From positions 1 to 64,000 of the IMG/VR virus record IMGVR_UViG_3300031922_000090: a stretch of DNA of 64,000 nucleotides. The stretch is one strand, 5' to 3'. Numbering within the stretch: the first letter of the stretch is position 1; each line of letters begins with the position of its first letter. Position numbers and translations under genes: made by a program. Origin of the DNA: a virus. Shown here one piece after another: positions 4,601 to 46,257 of the stretch. The notes under the pieces are model-generated. The model was not told the origin of the DNA. It made no database searches and was given only the letters and a program-made list of their open reading frames with translations.

Positions 4601-6066
4601 AACTCAGCAATTGCCTGTCTTGAACTTGACAGTGCTCCCGGAATGCCCCGGAATCCAGCGATTATCGCGTTACCGAATCCCTGAATTCCTCCTACAACGC
4701 CACCAAGCATCTCTTTTAGGTGGAGCCCCTGGAGGAATGTAGCGAAGCCAGCAAAGATTCCTTTTCCCGTATTAAGATTTGTACCAAGCGTTAAAAACGA
4801 ACTGCCGATACTTGCCAAAATCGGTCCAAGAACTTTAAGTTCGCCTATCGAGCTAACTACCATCCCAAGCGCAACCATCGCCGGACCTGCAACGAGAGCA
4901 AGCCCCCCTAAAGCGATAATGAAAACCTGAATTGATTGCGGCATCCCGGCGAAAGCTTCGGCGAGCTTACCAAGACTATTAACCATCTTGATTGCCATAC
5001 CAAGCAATGTCTGAATCGCCGGAGCTAAAATTTTACCTACCTGGATTCCGACTGTCTCCAGAGATGACATTAGCTCTTCCCACTGGCCTGCAACGCCTCG
5101 CCGGATAATAGATGCCATCCTGTCAGCAGCACCCGTGAAATTTTCAATTTCGGCGCGAGTCCTAATAAACGCGGCTCCACCCTTATCAATAAGTGGAATT
5201 ACCTCAGACCACCGTTGGCCGAAGATCGCGTAGGCAGCGGCAGCATTAGTTGTTAAAGGCTGTAGTTCGGCAATAAGTTCTCTCAGTGGTTTAATTCTGC
5301 CCGTTGTATCCAGAACATTGATACCAAGGGCTTTCATTGTATCCGCCGCTTTCGGTGTCGCGGAGGAAAGATCGTTGATGATATTCCGGAGTGCTGTTCC
5401 GCCTCTCTCCCCACGGATACCGGCGTCGGCAAGAACACCAAGCGCAGCGGCAGCGTCGAGAAAATCCACCCCAACAGCTTTAGCTACAGGACCAACATAT
5501 GAAAAAGCCCACCCGAGTTCTTTGACCGATGTTGCGCCCGTAGCCGAGGTTTTTGCGAGAATATCCGCAATCTTTTGGGTATCCTCTGCTTGGAACCCAT
5601 AACCTTTAAGAATATCCGAAGTGATTTGCGCCGCATCCGCTAAAGCCATTTGCTCAGTGGCAGCGAGAGCCAAAAGACCCGGCATCGCCATGTAAATTTC
5701 GTTCGTCTTAAACCCGGCAGCGGCAAGATTTCCCATTGCCTCGGCAGCTTGTTTCGCTGAATACTGGGTCTTTGCCCCGAGTTCCATGGCCTGATCGGAG
5801 AGCTTTCTTAATTCCTCCCCGAAAATATCGCCAAGAGCGGAAACCCGGTTCATTTCCTTTTCGAAGCCAGCGAAAACCAGCGTAGCAGCGGTAGCAACCC
5901 CGGCAAGTGGGAGCGTGATTGCTTTCGTCATGCCCTCACCCATTGATTGCATCGCCTCGCCCTGCTCACGTAATTTTCTTTGGGTATCCTGAATACCTTT
6001 GGAAAAATCTGTTATGTCCATCCCAAGACGGACAAACAAATCGCCAATTTTGGTCCCCCCGGCCAT
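1612..6066 (-). CDS. tail tape measure protein
   Basis: 1484-aa ORF with TMP core AMELGAKTQYSAKQAAEAMGNLAAAGFKTNEIYMAMPGLLALA, an Ala/Gly-rich hydrophobic middle and a long coiled-coil C-terminal half. It follows the G/GT chaperone pair. Confidence 0.9.
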   Translation of the reverse strand: MAGGTKIGDLFVRLGMDITDFSKGIQDTQRKLREQGEAMQSMGEGMTKAITLPLAGVATAATLVFAGFEKEMNRVSALGDIFGEELRKLSDQAMELGAKTQYSAKQAAEAMGNLAAAGFKTNEIYMAMPGLLALAATEQMALADAAQITSDILKGYGFQAEDTQKIADILAKTSATGATSVKELGWAFSYVGPVAKAVGVDFLDAAAALGVLADAGIRGERGGTALRNIINDLSSATPKAADTMKALGINVLDTTGRIKPLRELIAELQPLTTNAAAAYAIFGQRWSEVIPLIDKGGAAFIRTRAEIENFTGAADRMASIIRRGVAGQWEELMSSLETVGIQVGKILAPAIQTLLGMAIKMVNSLGKLAEAFAGMPQSIQVFIIALGGLALVAGPAMVALGMVVSSIGELKVLGPILASIGSSFLTLGTNLNTGKGIFAGFATFLQGLHLKEMLGGVVGGIQGFGNAIIAGFRGIPGALSSSRQAIAEFGAAAATFALDNARRFSEGFKSMTVAIAGFAASLTQGQGIRGALSTIGASITGFIASLASAGGISAALGSAKAALIAFGAAAAPVTVGMGAIVAAGTALAAIAYTIYKHWDDIKAVLLGIWTDLGNAFSSFGRWIMEWIEKAFGTRVAGYISSVWTGVRTFFISIWNGIVAIFQNGLKWIVEGALTAARAIGAGETAKALENWLNKLNGLSTAAKNSAGAMKSMGDESQKAMERGGAAAGSLTKKVGETAFSLKEYRDAQKQAAVATRDHAKEMASIDKVFDRVQDRVKDLPKTFEQFRRAMSEGFNVDRTIRSLTEEISDLEVAANRAANKGHKNLANAIQEQVKVLTEARERMRLYKREFDFDQQIRELDEINKRIAELNSDVRKLPPPPDFIGEWKQQEQAIDDLVAAYRAAGIAFDETLIRSGGQFAELSVEADRARRAFETIRDSGTASAKQIEDAYLNFLRRKASAENKNIEDFKALNTGLFGFIVSSSLRSGAAMQLAFTESVNGFRQTLNVGFKDIFGNLIDRDFKGFATSFQNLGRSMLSSFSDIFTKPFSKQLEGIFDNLTKSVSDWLTRNLFGSVMDGFNGILRKIPVIRNAFAGTFGVGNLAQIGPVITNLAKSGEIAAATAMKTAEIAKNAADTATNAARAATSAAQSAAQAGGAAAKAGTAVATGFSKALNIVNAVSAAVTAVASVLQYFQGRRMEQDIARIEVTTRAMQSQLLSFQELFNKFLPGIQGLNDWAWDYLRYFGQLMATVEECRDRLTDILRVFSEGIIAKEEKTVTGRESPEEKQEKALKDLTGTTKEVTGAFKESERRLKAFSGEVNSASDNLTIMSRQYEALPEIVEPPLHAIAEVSGNAASSLSEFGYRIDAATDRIYPSIMLLGDAASRAGNVIQRAAASIGQSASFAMTKMVDAASDLGNKVSQTTGSFFASPAGIGPAQPAGVYWGAPYTGVTSTPILSLNVNVNNADAQQVANQMVSTWRSRGVDI

Positions 6067-32763: not shown

Positions 32764-33182
32764 GATTCCTGAAGCCTCCGTGCCTTGCGGTCGATTTTAG
32801 CCAGCAGTTCAAGCCTTGCGGCGTGGTTACGTTCCTTCTCCTCCCGCAATTTCTGAGCCTCGCATTGAAGATCGTTGAAATAAACCCAATCTTCGGCGAA
32901 CTCGGGAAGCTGGCGGACATTACCCGGGAGAGCGACATAGACATCGAGATCCCGGCCCGTCTTCGGGTTAACCCGAGGCTTCACGCGCTTCCGGATCCTT
33001 CCCTCGTCAATCAACATCTGGAGACACTTATCGGTAGAGTGAGAGACGATTCCGGTTTCCCGGACGATCTCAACCCGCGTCGCGCCGTGGTAGCCGATAT
33101 CGCGGATGAGACCGAACACCCGCTCCTTTTGGCTGTCCCGGAACGGAAGCCCCTTTTTCAGCGAAGCCCGGCGAGCATTCAT
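32760..33182 (-). CDS. winged-helix DNA-binding protein
   Basis: FGLIRDIGYHGATRVEIVRETGIVSHSTDKCLQMLIDEGRIRKRV is a MarR/wHTH-like layout. Confidence 0.45.
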   Translation of the reverse strand: MNARRASLKKGLPFRDSQKERVFGLIRDIGYHGATRVEIVRETGIVSHSTDKCLQMLIDEGRIRKRVKPRVNPKTGRDLDVYVALPGNVRQLPEFAEDWVYFNDLQCEAQKLREEKERNHAARLELLAKIDRKARRLQES

Positions 33183-33739
33183 GCTGCTACCTCATCGATC
33201 ATCCGGAGAAGCGTTGCATACTTGGCGCGATATTTCTTGATACTCAGGAAAAAATAGTACTTCGTCTTCCACGACTTCAATTCAGAGTGCGCACGCTCCA
33301 GCATGGAGTCGAGGTGCGCGTCGTTATTGATGTCGAACAGGGCAGTCCCGCGCTCGTTCGGATGCTTTGAGTTTGCAATCGGAGTTGTGAAAAACATCGG
33401 AATAGGCGTCCCGACCACCTTCCGGCCAGCGGACGTTACCTCGATGATCCGGCGTTCAAGCCCGGTACGAAGCTGCCCCGCGATGCCCCGGTAATAGCAG
33501 AAAGCGGCTTCCTTTTCACTGGGGAAAAATCGGGAGGAGTAGTACTGCGAACGATTATTGACGATTTCTTCGGCGATGATATCGGTCGTCAGATTCTCGT
33601 TCTCAAAATCACCAAACCCGTGCTTTTGGGCAATCCGGGCAAGGTCTTCCGCGATGTGCGGCGCGTCAACGTTGCTGAAATGGTAACCGGGACGCGCGAC
33701 AATCTCGACTTCGTGTTTGATCTTCGGCTTTGCAGGCAT
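33179..33739 (-). CDS. hypothetical protein
   Basis: Start at MPAKPKIK (ATG 33739, AGGAGA SD, CGTATAAC 15 nt upstream). 186 aa. Confidence 0.45.
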   Translation of the reverse strand: MPAKPKIKHEVEIVARPGYHFSNVDAPHIAEDLARIAQKHGFGDFENENLTTDIIAEEIVNNRSQYYSSRFFPSEKEAAFCYYRGIAGQLRTGLERRIIEVTSAGRKVVGTPIPMFFTTPIANSKHPNERGTALFDINNDAHLDSMLERAHSELKSWKTKYYFFLSIKKYRAKYATLLRMIDEVAA

Positions 33740-33754
33740 CGTATCTCCTACTTC

Positions 33755-33762
33755 GTTATACG
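33755..33762 (-). promoter_or_regulatory. CGTATAAC motif
   Basis: The minus strand reads GTCGTATAACGAAGTAGGAGATACG-ATG. Intergenic, preceded by an 8-bp-stem hairpin GGAGCGGG...CCCGCTCC. Confidence 0.35.
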
Positions 33763-33806
33763 ACACGGAGCGGGAGATCCCCGGAAGAATCCCCCGCTCC
33801 AGTGCC

Positions 33807-34412
33807 TCAGACGGCAACGTGTTGCACACTATCGACGCGAAAACGCCCGAACATCCCGCGTTTCTCAACGCGGAATGAACCGAGCCCGATTGAGAAACCG
33901 GCCTGCTGGAAGTGCTGAATCAATTCGTCCAGCGTGACGAACTCCGGCACGAAATCAACGACAAAGGACATCGACCACTGGTCAAAGCGCGGCCTTGGAA
34001 CGCCGATAGCCTGTCCTTTGGCATTGACGGCACAGCGCACGTCCCGCGTCGGCGGATTCGGCGCTTCGATCACGACGTACTCTTCCGGAAAAACCAGCGT
34101 TCCAGTCAGCTTCTTTCCCATGCCCTTCTTCGCCCCGAACGTGATCGCGGCAGAGATCAGGGCGCGGAACATACCAACAGTCGGGAAGAGGAAACGCTTA
34201 CCCTCCATCCGGACCTTCTCCTCCCATCTCACCAGCGCATCTTTCTTCGTTCCGAGTCCTTCCGCTTTCCGGTTCAAGGACTCGATGATTCGGGGCGGCA
34301 TGGCGTTACACAGCAAGGGAGAGATCCCCGCTATGGTGATACAGACGCGCCGTGAAACGATGGGGTCAATCGTAACCACATCTTTCTCGGCGTTGACGGC
34401 TTTCTTCGGCAT
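33807..34412 (-). CDS. hypothetical protein; possible RAMP-like/RNA-binding fold (unverified)
   Basis: Start at MPKKAVNAEK (ATG 34412, AAGAAAGG SD). Features RVCITIAGISPLLCN, FLFPTVGMFRALISAA and a C-terminal glycine-rich GLGSFRVEKRGMFGRFRV. It is the first gene after the tandem RNA cassettes. Confidence 0.5.
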   Translation of the reverse strand: MPKKAVNAEKDVVTIDPIVSRRVCITIAGISPLLCNAMPPRIIESLNRKAEGLGTKKDALVRWEEKVRMEGKRFLFPTVGMFRALISAAITFGAKKGMGKKLTGTLVFPEEYVVIEAPNPPTRDVRCAVNAKGQAIGVPRPRFDQWSMSFVVDFVPEFVTLDELIQHFQQAGFSIGLGSFRVEKRGMFGRFRVDSVQHVAV

Positions 34413-34516
34413 AAATCTACCTTTCTTGGGAATACTGCGGGAGCCCGGAGGCTCCCGCCATTGCGTTGATTTGCTGTGCAAAGCGACGCGGGGCGAAGCA
34501 TTACACTAACACCACC

Positions 34517-34545
34517 AGCATAGCTCATCTGGAGGAGGAAGTCAA
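34517..34545 (-). promoter_or_regulatory. cassette promoter P1 (TTGACT-N17-TATGCT), drives the leader and CDS 33807..34412
   Basis: The minus strand reads TTGACTTCCTCCTCCAGATGAGCTATGCT. The ~100-nt leader contains hairpin GCGGGAGCC-TCCG-GGCTCCCGC (34437-34458) with no U tract. Confidence 0.55.
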
Positions 34546-34548
34546 CAG

Positions 34549-34583
34549 AAAAAAATGATGCCGGAATCCCGAAGGATTCCGGC
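34549..34583 (-). terminator. intrinsic terminator T1
   Basis: GCCGGAATCC-TTCG-GGATTCCGGC 10-bp stem, then ATCATTTTTTT. Confidence 0.8.
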
Positions 34584-34640
34584 CATTGATTTACTTTACT
34601 CCACAAAGCAATACAGCGCGATACGAGGCATAATCTCAAC
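34549..34640 (-). ncRNA. predicted small RNA 3 (~92 nt), promoter P2 to terminator T1
   Basis: Approximate transcript GGUGGUGUUGAGAUUAUGCCUCGUAUCGCGCUGUAUUGCUUUGUGGAGUAAAGUAAAUCAAUG plus hairpin and U7. Only an 11-codon ATG ORF. Ends are inferred, not measured. Confidence 0.45.
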
Positions 34641-34646
34641 ACCACC

Positions 34647-34675
34647 AGCATAGCTCATCTGGAGGAGGAAGTCAA
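34647..34675 (-). promoter_or_regulatory. cassette promoter P2 (TTGACT-N17-TATGCT)
   Basis: Identical to P1 and lies within the 85-nt repeat. Confidence 0.55.
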
Positions 34676-34678
34676 CAG

Positions 34679-34713
34679 AAAAAAATGATGCCGGAATCCC
34701 GAAGGATTCCGGC
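34679..34713 (-). terminator. intrinsic terminator T2
   Basis: Identical hairpin and U7 tract to T1. Confidence 0.8.
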
Positions 34714-34775
34714 CATTGATTTGAGATGCTGTGCTTCACATTACTACGCCGCACACCACTTTGTCCAACACCAAC
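34679..34775 (-). ncRNA. predicted small RNA 2 (~97 nt), promoter P3 to terminator T2
   Basis: Approximate transcript GAAGAUGUUGGUGUUGGACAAAGUGGUGUGCGGCGUAGUAAUGUGAAGCACAGCAUCUCAAAUCAAUG plus hairpin and U7. The 5' AGAUGUUG can pair with CAGCAUCU. Only a 13-codon ORF. Confidence 0.45.
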
Positions 34776-34781
34776 ATCTTC

Positions 34782-34810
34782 AGCATACCTCATCTGGAAG
34801 AGGAAGTCAA
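34782..34810 (-). promoter_or_regulatory. cassette promoter P3 (TTGACT-N17-TATGCT)
   Basis: The minus strand reads TTGACTTCCTCTTCCAGATGAGGTATGCT. Confidence 0.55.
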
Positions 34811-34813
34811 CAG

Positions 34814-34847
34814 AAAAAATGATGCCGGAGCCCCAGGTGACTCCGGC
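34814..34847 (-). terminator. intrinsic terminator T3
   Basis: GCCGGAGTCACC-TGGGGCTCCGGC hairpin (GCCGGAG/CTCCGGC arms), then ATCATTTTTT. Confidence 0.7.
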
Positions 34848-34914
34848 TATCAGATTACTTTAATGCGCCAAATAGGGAGGCAGGTTACCCTACTGTACGT
34901 GACGGCGCATTAAC
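34814..34914 (-). ncRNA. predicted small RNA 1 (~100 nt), promoter P4 to terminator T3
   Basis: Approximate transcript GAAGGUGUUAAUGCGCCGUCACGUACAGUAGGGUAACCUGCCUCCCUAUUUGGCGCAUUAAAGUAAUCUGAUA plus hairpin and U6. Perfect 10-bp internal stem UUAAUGCGCC/GGCGCAUUAA. Confidence 0.45.
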
Positions 34915-34920
34915 ACCTTC

Positions 34921-34949
34921 AGGATAACCCACCACACCCTGAACGTCAA
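34921..34949 (-). promoter_or_regulatory. cassette promoter P4 (TTGACG-N17-TATCCT)
   Basis: The minus strand reads TTGACGTTCAGGGTGTGGTGGGTTATCCT and starts 9 nt after the DNA methylase stop. Confidence 0.5.
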
Positions 34950-34957
34950 GAACTTTT

Positions 34958-35974
34958 TCAGGAAGAACTCGGAGCCAACGCTTCTTCAAGATCCGCGTAC
35001 CGCGAAAAATGCTCCAGACGTTTGAGTGCAATGGCAACGTAGCCCGGCTCCCGCTCGATGCCCGTAACCCGCTCCCACCCGGCAAACCGCGCTCCGATCA
35101 TCTCGGAGCCACTCCCGGCGAACGGCACCAGCAGGCGTCCACCCGTGGGAGGCAGGATCAACTTTGCGAGGTACTGGGTCAGATAAAGCGGCTTCACAGT
35201 CGGATGGTCGTTATACTCACAGCGGTCCTTTCGAGCTTTCCCACAGTAGAAAAATCTGGAAGAACCCGGAGCTTGAGCCTCCAGCATCTCAACCGGCTCG
35301 CCAGCTTCGAACAGGACGTTAACGGGATAGCGCCCTTCGGTAATCCGCGTACCGTCAATGTTCAAGCCACCCGTCCCGTACTGAACAACGTTATCGCACA
35401 CCGGGCCGGTTACAGGTTTCCGCGCGAGAATGATCGGCTCCCATCCCGGCCTCAGAGTCGTGTTGTAGCCGTCCCACAGCGCAGCCTCGGGAGATCCCGG
35501 CAACGTCTTCAGGCGGTTACTTCCAGAAAAATCACCCTCGTAGCCGATGGAGTTGTGATCGTGCGCGGCATAATTCCGCTCCCGAGGTTCGGCTCCGGGC
35601 GGACAATACTGTGCCCCGGTCTCCCGGACGATACCTTTCTTCCGGTCGATGAGCTTACCGAGATCCTGTCCCTTCGGAAAACCATTTCCGTACAGCCACA
35701 TCAGGCAGTCAACAATCTCAAACCCTCCGGCTTCAATCGCCACGGCTAGATGATGGAAGGTCCGCGTGCCCCCGAACGCCAGCAACGGCGCTCCCGGCTT
35801 CAAGACCCGGCAAACCTCGGCCCAAACAACGGCGGACGGAACCCCATGGTCCCATTCCCGCCCGAGAAATTTCAGCCCGTAGGGCGGATCCGTAAGCACG
35901 GCGTGGTACTGTTCCGGCTTCTTCCGCTTGAGAACAGCAAGCACGTCGCCGGTCTCAAGTAAAATCCCCGCCAT
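34958..35974 (-). CDS. DNA N4/N6 methyltransferase (ParB-less, beta-class order)
   Basis: VLTDPPYGL catalytic motif near the N-terminus and LLVPFAGSGSEMIGA SAM-binding motif near the C-terminus. 338 aa. Confidence 0.85.
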   Translation of the reverse strand: MAGILLETGDVLAVLKRKKPEQYHAVLTDPPYGLKFLGREWDHGVPSAVVWAEVCRVLKPGAPLLAFGGTRTFHHLAVAIEAGGFEIVDCLMWLYGNGFPKGQDLGKLIDRKKGIVRETGAQYCPPGAEPRERNYAAHDHNSIGYEGDFSGSNRLKTLPGSPEAALWDGYNTTLRPGWEPIILARKPVTGPVCDNVVQYGTGGLNIDGTRITEGRYPVNVLFEAGEPVEMLEAQAPGSSRFFYCGKARKDRCEYNDHPTVKPLYLTQYLAKLILPPTGGRLLVPFAGSGSEMIGARFAGWERVTGIEREPGYVAIALKRLEHFSRYADLEEALAPSSS

Positions 35975-35977
35975 CTT

Positions 35978-36379
35978 CTAAAGCTGCCCCTCCGGCGTCC
36001 ACCAAAGCATGGAACCGAGAATCACGTTGGACGAGTACACCTCACGCGCTCCGGCCCAGTGATACCGCGCGATGATCACTCCCCGCTTCTTCAGCAAGAC
36101 CTCGAATGTTCCGGACTCGAACTCCATCGCCCGGACACCAGAGACTGCCGTAACTGCTTCCGGCTTCTTCGGCACGCCAGCGTCCAGAAATCGCGCCCCC
36201 TGATAGCCGAGAATCTGGTCAGTCGGGGTAAGCTGCTTCAACATCTTCGGCTCCTCAAGCTTGAGCCATGCCCGGACGTTCTTGACCAATTCCGGAGGAT
36301 ATTTCCATGCGTCATCCTGAAGAAGCGGAACCGGGTACGTTTCGCCCGGCGGCAGCTTCCACTCCATGACCCGAATCAT
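35978..36379 (-). CDS. hypothetical protein
   Basis: Start at MIRVMEWKL (ATGA overlap with the upstream stop). Confidence 0.45.
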   Translation of the reverse strand: MIRVMEWKLPPGETYPVPLLQDDAWKYPPELVKNVRAWLKLEEPKMLKQLTPTDQILGYQGARFLDAGVPKKPEAVTAVSGVRAMEFESGTFEVLLKKRGVIIARYHWAGAREVYSSNVILGSMLWWTPEGQL

Positions 36380-38108: not shown

Positions 38109-38947
38109 ACGACCTTCTCCGCAGAGACGGCTTCGGCCTCAACCGTGATCGTTTCCCCAGTTTTTTCTTCCGGAGCTGCTGGAGCGGGTAACTGTCCCAC
38201 GGCCTGCAAGATCGCCAAGATTGCGCCCGCTTCCTCCGGCGATTGAGGAATAATCTCATCCTTGCGGTCGGCCTGCTCGACCACGCCCCCGACGAGAATC
38301 TGCTGTTTAGCGCCCCAACGATGCGGGAAGCGGCGTTCAAGCAGCGAGAAAAGATTGCCCCCATGGCGCGCTCCGAGCTTGATCAAACTGACATCGGCGA
38401 TTTCAGACTGCGCTTCAGCGATATCCAGCGCTCTTATGAACTTTGCAAACTGCGAATTACCGTCCTCAATTTCCTCCACACCACGGTCGCGCCATGCCCG
38501 GTATTGCGATGCCGTGATGCCAATTGCCCGGCAGGCGATCTCCGCATGGAGCCCCGCACCCACCCACCGGGTAGCAAGCCGAATCATCTCGTCCGTCGGC
38601 CCTTCCTTAAACAGGAATGAAGTAGGAAGGCCGGAGAGCGAAACCGGCTTAGGTAGATCTTCCTTATAGAGATTTTTAAGCTGGCGGCGCATCTGCAAAT
38701 ATGCGCCGTTCACCAAACCCTTTCTCCCGTTCGGCTTCCCGTTTGGCGTAGTTCCGGAAGAGGAGGATTTACGAAAAGCGGAGAAGTCCGGCGCTGCTTT
38801 TTTAGCCTTCGGAACCTTACTACTGGGTCCGGCTCCACCCCCGGACGCGGCCTTCCGGGTGGATTTTGATCTTGGTCCGGCTTTAGCAGCGCTTTTATTT
38901 TTAGAATTACCCGGCCTCCCCGGCTTCTTAATTGGCTTTTTACCCAT
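38102..38947 (-). CDS. Lys-rich N-terminus plus HTH protein, terminase-small-subunit-like (tentative)
   Basis: IACRAIGITASQYRAWRDRGVEE...FAKFIRALDIAEAQSEIADVSLIKLGA...LLERRFPHRWG resembles HTH-type TerS proteins. By eye only. It is far from TerL. Confidence 0.3.
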   Translation of the reverse strand: MGKKPIKKPGRPGNSKNKSAAKAGPRSKSTRKAASGGGAGPSSKVPKAKKAAPDFSAFRKSSSSGTTPNGKPNGRKGLVNGAYLQMRRQLKNLYKEDLPKPVSLSGLPTSFLFKEGPTDEMIRLATRWVGAGLHAEIACRAIGITASQYRAWRDRGVEEIEDGNSQFAKFIRALDIAEAQSEIADVSLIKLGARHGGNLFSLLERRFPHRWGAKQQILVGGVVEQADRKDEIIPQSPEEAGAILAILQAVGQLPAPAAPEEKTGETITVEAEAVSAEKVVV

Positions 38948-44861: not shown

Positions 44862-45245
44862 CTAGTAAATTGCGGAGCAACTTCTCCGCACAGTCCGAAC
44901 CTGATGGGCAACAGAGCCACGGAGATGCTTCTCTCCGGCAATCTGAGCCCGGACAGCCTCATCTGTCCATAGCTGGCGTTCGATGCCGTTACGGTACAAA
45001 TTCCGGCCCTTGCGCCGCGTCTCCACCCCGGCAACGAGCGGTTGCACCCCACTGGACTCAACCACGCGAAACGTAAAAGTATGCTGTTGCTTACCTGCTC
45101 CGTAGCTCTCCCGGAGAATTTCGGCAACGATAGTCCGGTTACCGGCATACTTCGGTGAACGGAAGGATCCGGAAAAAACCGCTTCCGTAAAGCGCACGAC
45201 GTCGCCTCTAACCACATCGCCAGTTGCGTCTGTCCACTCAATCAT
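44862..45245 (-). CDS. hypothetical protein
   Basis: 127-aa ORF with a GGAGG SD, preceded by a long G/C-rich imperfect hairpin. Confidence 0.45.
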   Translation of the reverse strand: MIEWTDATGDVVRGDVVRFTEAVFSGSFRSPKYAGNRTIVAEILRESYGAGKQQHTFTFRVVESSGVQPLVAGVETRRKGRNLYRNGIERQLWTDEAVRAQIAGEKHLRGSVAHQVRTVRRSCSAIY

Positions 45246-46228: not shown

Positions 46229-46257
46229 AGTTTAAGTCTTCCGGAGGAACTTGTCAA
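46229..46257 (-). promoter_or_regulatory. sigma70-type promoter TTGACA-N17-TAAACT with TTCC-TCC-GGAA spacer palindrome
   Basis: The minus strand reads TTGACAAGTTCCTCCGGAAGACTTAAACT, then GATAGC, then ATG. Confidence 0.6.

Follow-up and report, generated by a model that had tools for sequence, protein, structure and literature searches.

The recently described systems named VIPR (Viral Interference Programmable Repeat) are built around phage-encoded RAMP proteins, Vipr, which bind RNAs of ~100 nt, the vrRNAs (bioRxiv 10.64898/2026.04.26.720920; bioRxiv 10.64898/2026.04.26.720927). In a vrRNA, 9–16 pentamers of the GGY/NN pattern (written YNNGG) precede a structured tail that does not vary, and each Vipr protomer takes up one pentamer, burying G1, G2 and Y3. 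The N4N5 dinucleotides stay exposed and pair with double-stranded DNA (dsDNA), skipping every third base, and in this way transcription of competing phages, satellites or prophages is silenced (bioRxiv 10.64898/2026.04.26.720920; 10.64898/2026.04.26.720927). Alternative repeat classes (NNNGG, YNNNG and NNNNG) are given in the methods of one preprint, which also reports ~100-nt vrRNAs in arrays (10.64898/2026.04.26.720920). Experiments have so far dealt only with GGY-type VIPR, mainly with the type II system of Escherichia phage SUSP1 and with that of P. fulva, and it has been suggested that the RAMP effectors of CRISPR have their viral ancestor in VIPR (2026 preprints). Here we analyse positions 1 to 64,000 of IMG/VR record IMGVR_UViG_3300031922_000090 (the window, 64,000 nt), which is the genome of a tailed phage, siphovirus-like as it encodes a long tape-measure protein. 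On its minus strand, four promoter-led cassettes precede the gene for a 201-residue RAMP and a probable accessory gene, vap, and together they very probably constitute a VIPR locus of an uncultured tailed phage.

A first-pass annotation of this DNA, made from the letters without database searches, had noticed the cassettes and knew of no published phage element that is built in this way. That statement is superseded, as VIPR is described in the two preprints (bioRxiv 10.64898/2026.04.26.720920; 10.64898/2026.04.26.720927): the kind of element is already known, and what is new is this member, which is divergent, does not belong to type II and has every guide as a predicted autonomous transcription unit. 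The likeness to the SUSP1 locus (PDB 36pp) is clear. Both have a single phage-encoded RAMP of ~200 residues with RRM core, thumb and G-loop, ~100-nt guides made of pentamers and a constant structured 3′ tail, an array plus one vrRNA directly upstream of vipr, and a small gene right after it that is an accessory gene in SUSP1 and a probable one here, and both lack a CRISPR array and other cas genes. They differ in the repeat, which is YNNNG here and YNNGG in SUSP1, in the tail, which is a plain GC hairpin doubling as a terminator here and a pseudoknot in SUSP1, and in the σ70-like promoter that precedes each unit here, whereas no per-unit σ70-type promoter or terminator was found in the SUSP1 array by a simple consensus scan; also, all guides lie upstream of vipr here. 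None of the type II hallmarks (GGY/NN repeats, pseudoknot tail, vap1) is present, with G1 at background (frequency 0.2–0.3) and a plain hairpin as the tail. The divergence of this member thus lies in its YNNNG class, its autonomous promoter–terminator cassettes and its probable accessory gene of non-type-II kind. The locus is compact (~1.8 kb), with the order four vrRNA genes, vipr and probable vap (Table 1), and its sequence motifs, periodicity, protein fold and family, synteny and conservation in relatives are shown here.

Routine searches say little about the 201-residue protein: Pfam, NCBIfam and PADLOC give no match, PHROGs gives only the unnamed family phrog_4652, a word-indexed protein search returns the protein itself and nothing else, and a single-protein locus search returns nothing. 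An exhaustive HMMER search collected 1470 homologues of ~180–240 residues, and a 112-member family profile compared with the PDB matched 36pp_D, 'SUSP1 Vipr protein', over residues 19–196 with E=1.1e-20, followed only at ~4e-3 by CRISPR Csm5. The single sequence matches SUSP1 Vipr with E=3.9e-4, i.e. at low identity. The AlphaFold (AF2) model calculated with the family alignment is of high confidence (pLDDT 94.6, pTM 0.85; a prediction from the single sequence was unusable, with pLDDT 37), and in a Foldseek comparison with the PDB all 50 matches listed (83 had E≤0.001) are CRISPR RAMP subunits, nearly all of Cas7 type, with Csm3 and type VII Cas7 at the top and with Cmr and Cas7-11 among the others, with probability 1.00 and TM-scores of 0.5–0.6. 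As judged by profile homology and the predicted model, the protein is a Vipr-family RAMP with a Cas7-like fold, standing alone at ~20 kDa and homologous to a characterised Vipr, so that the earlier by-eye impression of a RAMP-like G-loop was well founded. The reading frame is intact and retains the conserved G-loop (GLGSFR..G..G) as well as R140 of the thumb. In SUSP1 Vipr, H17 and D177 hydrogen-bond G1, while R138, W178 and R179 hold G2/Y3 (10.64898/2026.04.26.720927). The G2/Y3-holding residues are conserved or conservatively replaced here as R140, F180 and R181, and those reading G1 become N36 and S179. We note, as a pairing of our own, that N36/S179 in the protein matches the loss of G1 in the RNAs described below.

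The bodies of all four RNAs are tandem Y-N-N-N-G pentamers in an identical register relative to the −10 element (4/4 units), or, in the canonical numbering, [n1]-G2-Y3-N4-N5 repeats. The Y3 column is a pyrimidine in 46/46 repeats, including 37/37 variable ones, and the G2 column directly before it is G in 34/46 (30/37 variable), while n1, which occupies the G1 position two before Y3, is G in only 5/46 (5/37 variable) and is otherwise unbiased. Column information at period 5 amounts to 2.32 bits against 0.32±0.10 in shuffles (0/5000 as high), and periods 3, 4, 6 and 7 give no such signal. Exact GY runs at 5-nt spacing reach 5, 7, 8 and 7 in the four units, where runs of at least 7 are expected 0.05 times per window. 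In a MAFFT alignment of the units the gaps are of 5, 10 and 15 nt, therefore the units differ by whole repeats. Each contains 10–13 pentamers, with 7–11 variable ones followed by 2–3 constant ones (YAAAK / CAATG); in vrRNA-2, 10 variable pentamers precede the constant CAAAT CAATG. The constant AAATCAATG element thus represents the final two pentamers, and the GC hairpin behind it the 3′ tail.

This hairpin forms a constant structured tail in all four units. Of its positions 97% are paired, and two pairs have changed in a compensatory manner between units, only four sequences being compared. It doubles as the predicted terminator in units 1–3 and is kept in unit 4 (GCGGGAGCC-UCCG-GGCUCCCGC) though it is non-terminating there. 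Tracts of this kind, of at least four tandem pentamers of YNNGG or a related consensus beside vipr, are what identifies vrRNAs, and by their repeat pattern the four RNAs are vrRNAs of the YNNNG class. The guide-RNA-like layout that the first-pass annotation had suspected, in which a variable body lies between a constant end and an unchanging 3′ hairpin, is therefore that of pentanucleotide vrRNAs; the bodies are indeed variable in sequence as it said, but their strict 5-nt YNNNG periodicity had been overlooked. Two more runs of six GY at 5-nt spacing exist in the window, at 45046–45072 on the minus strand and 38486–38512 on the plus strand; both are within coding sequences (CDSs), lack promoter and terminator motifs and are probably due to chance (0.34 expected per window).

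Could these RNAs instead be ordinary trans-acting antisense small RNAs, or tandem promoter/attenuator duplications, unrelated to the RNA-binding fold of the neighbouring protein? A separate promoter and terminator for each unit, a predicted folding of the RNAs that is more stable than that of shuffles (z from −2.6 down to −5.7), and the fact that the CU-rich loop of vrRNA-1 is exposed would all be in keeping with such a role and with the idea of a sequence complementary to Shine-Dalgarno (SD) sites that had been raised earlier. What is left unexplained in this case is the strict 5-nt Y/G periodicity, maintained in one register through four otherwise unrelated bodies, along with the length differences in multiples of 5 and the pentamer repeats beside vipr homologues in eight other loci, where these promoters and terminators are missing. 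The antisense and anti-SD ideas also find no complementary site in the window. We consider explanations of this type extremely improbable. The perfect stem annotated earlier in vrRNA-1 does fold, as 11 bp (UUAAUGCGCCG/UGGCGCAUUAA; z = −5.7), with the first two pentamers paired to pentamers 9–11; the stem region spans window 34860–34913. In vrRNA-2 and vrRNA-3, 5′ GUUGR pairs with AUCAAU of the tail, with one compensatory difference between units (G-C in both units 2 and 3 but A-U in unit 1), which may represent a 5′–3′ closing helix in the free RNAs.

The transcription signals of the cassettes are equally regular. A consensus scan of 33000–36000 finds exactly four σ70-like promoters (1.1±1.1 in shuffles), at the positions where the first-pass annotation had placed them, and the combined pattern of promoter and the 9-mer that follows it is confined to these four sites, 0.02 occurrences being expected in the 64 kb window. 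The three predicted intrinsic terminators (hairpin, then ATCAT6-7) are present in units 1–3, resulting in predicted RNA lengths of ~101, ~96 and ~91 nt for units 1, 2 and 3. The hairpin of unit 4 has no U tract, also in agreement with the earlier annotation, and is followed by AAAGG-N8-ATG of vipr; read-through into vipr is to be expected because the U tract is missing. P1–P3 are variants of the phage's own promoter family, with 20/29 positions in common as read from the sequences. This family is found phage-wide with a conserved spacer, TTGACA-NN-TTCYTC..GGAAG..-TAnnCT, with −35 starts on the minus strand of the window at 46257, 43053, 26186, 25889, 25368, 24400 and 23156; the inverted TTCC..GGAA of the spacer could act as an operator. 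In four of its members an ATG is found exactly 6 nt after the −10, opening open reading frames (ORFs) of 103–142 aa, which suggests leaderless mRNAs. By analogy, the vrRNA start is probably the G at the 7th nt after the −10, two nt ahead of the first pentamer, and therefore most of the constant 5′ 9-mer is probably not transcribed. The 9-mer is thus present in the DNA as annotated, but as a 5′ tag of the RNA it probably does not hold, since it lies mostly upstream of the probable +1.

Table 1. Features of the VIPR locus, in order of transcription. Positions are those of the window.
Feature	Position	Strand	Description
P4	34921-34949	minus	vrRNA-1 promoter by motif match, TTGACG-N17-TATCCT; runs into the end of the DNA methylase gene (last codons and stop)
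vrRNA-1, ~101 nt	34814-34914	minus	Predicted; 13 in-phase pentamers 34912-34848 (Y 13/13, G 7/13), hairpin 34847-34824, ATCAU6
P3	34782-34810	minus	Predicted, TTGACT-N17-TATGCT; member of the phage's own promoter family
vrRNA-2, ~96 nt	34680-34775	minus	Predicted; 12 YNNNG pentamers 34773-34714, hairpin 34713-34690, ATCAU6
P2	34647-34675	minus	Predicted, TTGACT-N17-TATGCT; same sequence as P1
vrRNA-3, ~91 nt	34550-34640	minus	Predicted; 11 YNNNG pentamers 34638-34584, hairpin 34583-34560, ATCAU7
P1	34517-34545	minus	TTGACT-N17-TATGCT; predicted driver of vrRNA-4 and the vipr(-vap) mRNA
vrRNA-4	34437-34510	minus	Predicted, also the vipr leader; 10 YNNNG pentamers 34508-34459, tail hairpin 34458-34437 without U tract
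vipr, 201-aa RAMP	33807-34412	minus	Cas7-like RRM core; thumb hairpin ~122-143; G-loop G176-L-G-S-F-R181...G186..G189
GC-rich hairpin, no U tract	33767-33800	minus	GGAGCGGG...CCCGCTCC, between the vipr stop and the SD of the next gene; read from the sequence
Candidate vap, 186 aa	33179-33739	minus	ATG preceded by an SD, at 68 nt from the vipr stop

Since the cassettes include an 85-nt perfect direct repeat with a period of 130 nt (34508–34592 = 34638–34722), which is exact as first described, one has to ask whether the array might be an assembly artefact, or else a decaying non-functional remnant. An independent short-read assembly (Logan, SRR1636513, contig L004) is identical to the window across 10,731 nt and reproduces unit 4 and vipr exactly; it ends at window 34537, within P1 and within the 85-nt repeat (L004 1–125). 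Such a break might be held to favour an artefact, but we take the repeat as genuine precisely because the second assembly breaks inside it, and collapse of one unit cannot yield three different bodies between identical flanks. The possibility of an artefact, named at first pass, is thus answered as regards the repeat itself, which is real, and less so for the units, as the cassette copy number and order are supported by one assembly only. Decay could be read from the degenerate G column of unit 1, against which stand the Y column at 46/46, the compensatory tail pairing, and the intact vipr ORF with its conserved G-loop and thumb residues. We therefore find an artefact or a dead remnant hardly credible.

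To place the locus among its relatives we compared ten homologue loci (designated by L numbers) and the SUSP1 reference locus. In four loci vipr is accompanied by flanking tracts of the canonical YNNGG repeat: SUSP1, L001 (17 repeats, ending ~20 nt ahead of the SD), L006 (three tracts, downstream of vipr) and L008. The L008 tracts are on the strand opposite to vipr, at 56–124 and 731–794; one precedes vipr, and the intergenic gap between vipr and vap holds the other. YNNNG tracts flank vipr in L003, L030, L031 and L032, with tails of the CAATG CAATG or CAAAC CAAAG type, while the tracts are unclear in L007 and L009 and no clear tract is seen in L029. The four YNNNG loci of uncultured phages (L003/P0005, L030/P0021, L031/P0019 and L032/P0016) are most similar in kind to the window, as their Vipr proteins, ~25–40% identical, also lack the G1-contacting H/D pair and their YNNNG vrRNAs also have constant terminal pentamers of the C-A-A-A/T type. 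In contrast to the window, where the array is upstream of vipr, their arrays are downstream of vipr-vap. L030 has a GC tail hairpin, and in L003 each tail is followed by a hairpin-rich spacer. The two-hairpin spacers of L003, and the constant 5′ element and U-tract-less hairpin of L030, suggest processing of one long transcript, unlike here. In the YNNNG loci scanned (L003, L030 and L032) there are no per-unit σ70 promoters and U-tract terminators, therefore autonomous cassettes appear to be peculiar to the window locus among those examined. The exact promoter-cassette pattern was also not found in IMG/VR, and no related DNA was found in INPHARED phages. A tRNA/tmRNA and Rfam search over the locus, the latter as had been proposed at first pass, returned no match, whether gathering thresholds or E≤1 were applied; Rfam 15 contains no vrRNA model.

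The L003 array deserves a remark of its own. It comprises, at 5190–5800, about five YNNNG vrRNAs, every tract of which ends in CAATG-type pentamers, and its spacers contain two hairpins each, a long GC hairpin and an AUCC-N-G-GAAA-C-N-GGAU hairpin, without promoter or terminator consensus and without an Rfam match. Hammerhead ribozymes were suspected between these vrRNAs on account of TGATGAG/GAAA strings but are unsupported by Rfam; the spacer hairpins may represent an undescribed processing element or ribozyme.

These loci also allow the identity of the G1 base to be compared with the residues that would contact it. The sample is of nine loci (the window, SUSP1, L001, L003, L006, L008, L030, L031 and L032, one of them tabulated as L010), which are phylogenetically non-independent. 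The SUSP1-type contact pair, His in β1 and Asp in the G-loop, goes with YNNGG in 3/3 loci (SUSP1, L001 and L006). The pair is absent (N/S or N/A) in the window and the four YNNNG loci, so that its absence accompanies YNNNG in 5/6 loci, with L008 as the sole exception, where both residues are absent and yet the repeat is YNNGG. Overall, loss of the G1 base tracks loss of both G1-contacting residues at 8/9 loci. The sample is small, but the pattern fits the structure, and such RNA–protein co-variation at G1 could explain the diversification of VIPR repeat codes. The G-loop aromatic residue (W or F) was considered as a predictor of repeat class and ruled out by L032, which has AW and yet YNNNG.

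Two better-known kinds of system share some of these features. The backbone subunits of class 1 CRISPR-Cas (Cas7/Csm3/Cmr4 and type VII Cas7) have the same fold, and one protomer per guide increment with a base-flipping thumb is expected in both. However, TRF and repeat scans found no CRISPR array or tandem repeats in the window, and neither other cas genes (Cas5, Cas6, Cas10 or Cas11) nor adaptation genes were found there; no neighbours are cas-like and PADLOC has no match. The locus, with a single Cas7-like gene only, is thus as minimal and non-CRISPR as other VIPR loci, and differs from class 1 systems in lacking a repeat-spacer array and a multi-subunit effector, in its period of 5 instead of 6 nt, and in carrying the specificity inside the repeats and not in a spacer. 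Type III toxin-antitoxin systems (ToxIN) likewise have tandem RNA repeats and a terminator immediately ahead of a protein-coding gene, and also occur in a phage-related setting. The ToxI RNA, however, consists of 36-nt units cut by the ToxN endoribonuclease, while here the units are ~130-nt cassettes with internal 5-nt periodicity and the protein is a RAMP, not of the ToxN fold.

Several observations weigh against the assignment as a functional VIPR locus and are considered together here. One concerns the accessory gene. The 186-residue protein encoded after vipr has no match of its own in Pfam, PHROG or NCBIfam and, in contrast to the SUSP1 arrangement, is unrelated to vap1. In five relatives (L003 and L006–L009) a same-strand gene of ~176–196 aa is found downstream of vipr, at distances from abutting to ~340 nt. 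The five are homologous to one another, with phrog_15946 as their match. The window protein aligns over its full length to a profile of the five with hhalign probability 85% (E=6e-6) and matches the L003 counterpart by BLASTP with E=1e-4. Together with L003 and L006–L009, L032 resembles the window in this respect, by size and position only of its 188-aa gene. The 186-aa gene is thus probably the vap accessory gene, on moderate evidence of remote homology. Another point is vrRNA-1, which is partly degenerate (G in 7/13) and strongly self-paired, and this should hinder filament assembly. Further, discrete vrRNAs are predicted here from promoter and terminator consensus and from lengths, their binding by Vipr would follow by homology, and the 1-nt-skip code is demonstrated only in GGY-type (type II) systems, so that it would apply to YNNNG by analogy.

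The remaining points concern targets. The window was searched under five rules, namely the published 1-nt skip (xNN), 0-, 2- and 3-nt skips and contiguous NNn, and contains no self-target under any of them. The database scans used exact patterns, so that a target with 1–2 mismatches would escape, and within this scope no natural target with statistical support emerged across the window, IMG/VR, JGI metagenomes and GTDB genomes. In IMG/VR the xNN patterns of the full variable tracts of units 2 and 3 and of the first nine repeats of unit 1 gave nothing, nor did those of the full variable tracts of units 1 and 2 in GTDB genomes. The sole exact match of unit 2 (20 bases, JGI metagenomes) is to a duplicated fungal DUF6535 gene, with the skip bases at codon position 1, and was rejected because about one such match is expected by chance. 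Sub-patterns of 16 bases match 10 + 8 = 18 loci, in which extension and n1 matches are at chance level, and no contig is matched by two guides. In the best of these 18, the xNN pattern of vrRNA-2 matches at 19/20 positions in a phage C5 DNA-methyltransferase gene (L020 ~4953–4982, IMG/VR 3300007508_000034), and also in L013, L016 and L019; in L020 the match falls on the peptide GWKGAVKDT just past the PC motif, with the skip bases at wobble positions. As ~2 such matches are expected by chance, this is only a lead.

The absence of a convincing target under the canonical xNN rule leads to the question of whether this VIPR relative uses another code, with n1 as the third programmable base in a contiguous triplet, or targets RNA rather than dsDNA. 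Apart from the target search, one can cite in favour that n1 is unconstrained, with G in 5/37 repeats and no bias otherwise, that SUSP1 H17/D177 are replaced by N36/S179, and that the nearest solved folds, Csm3 and type VII Cas7, are RNA-targeting. But the xNN scans leave the skip base free and so cover contiguous NNn targets too, with nothing found, and n1 matches the skip base at chance level in all near-hits. Moreover, YNNNG RNAs are treated as ordinary vrRNAs in the preprint (bioRxiv 10.64898/2026.04.26.720920), and, since the phage is uncultured and its competitors may be missing from databases, it is no surprise that a target was not found. We judge a different code or an RNA target to be quite improbable as an account of this locus. 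A specific version, which we put forward as an unlikely but attractive idea, is that n1 would pair with the 'skipped' target base, giving a contiguous triplet per protomer and hence a denser, second VIPR code, written in self-contained cassettes that need no processing.

Returning to a VIPR locus of the ordinary kind, what mechanism would it follow? Promoter and terminator activity, formation of the ribonucleoprotein and DNA targeting are inferred, as follows. Every vrRNA would be transcribed from its own σ70-like promoter of the phage family. In units 1–3 the hairpin and U tract would end transcription to release free RNAs of ~91–101 nt, while from unit 4 transcription would run on through vipr, and probably through vap as well. 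If the homologous systems of SUSP1 and P. fulva are a guide, one Vipr protomer would bind per pentamer, and the resulting helical filament would bury G2 and Y3 and expose N4N5. The N4N5 dinucleotides would then pair with dsDNA, every third target base being skipped, and the R-loop triplex would keep the target from being transcribed; this target is most likely a phage, satellite or prophage in competition with the phage. Vap may enhance the silencing.

As for the surroundings, the neighbouring genes encode a DNA methylase and a DnaQ-like exonuclease, next to small ORFs. The methylase, an N6/N4 DNA methyltransferase, is encoded at window 34958–35974, just upstream of the VIPR locus, and in the closest relative, L001, a DNA methyltransferase is also found two genes upstream of vipr (1984–2745), so this neighbourhood may be conserved. 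The terminase was uninformative about the host, as its top matches are from Gordonia and Methanobacterium phages at <50% identity.

The locus shows that an element of the VIPR class can be recovered from raw sequence by a reader without tools. It is a clean and compact example of the YNNNG class, which has been little studied, and comes from an uncultured phage that is divergent and siphovirus-like. With its own promoter and terminator for each guide, the predicted 5′ and 3′ ends of the guides are unambiguous, which should make for easy cloning and reprogramming. Were the guides to prove to be expressed as self-contained cassettes without processing, these cassettes would represent the simplest known natural format of guide-RNA expression.

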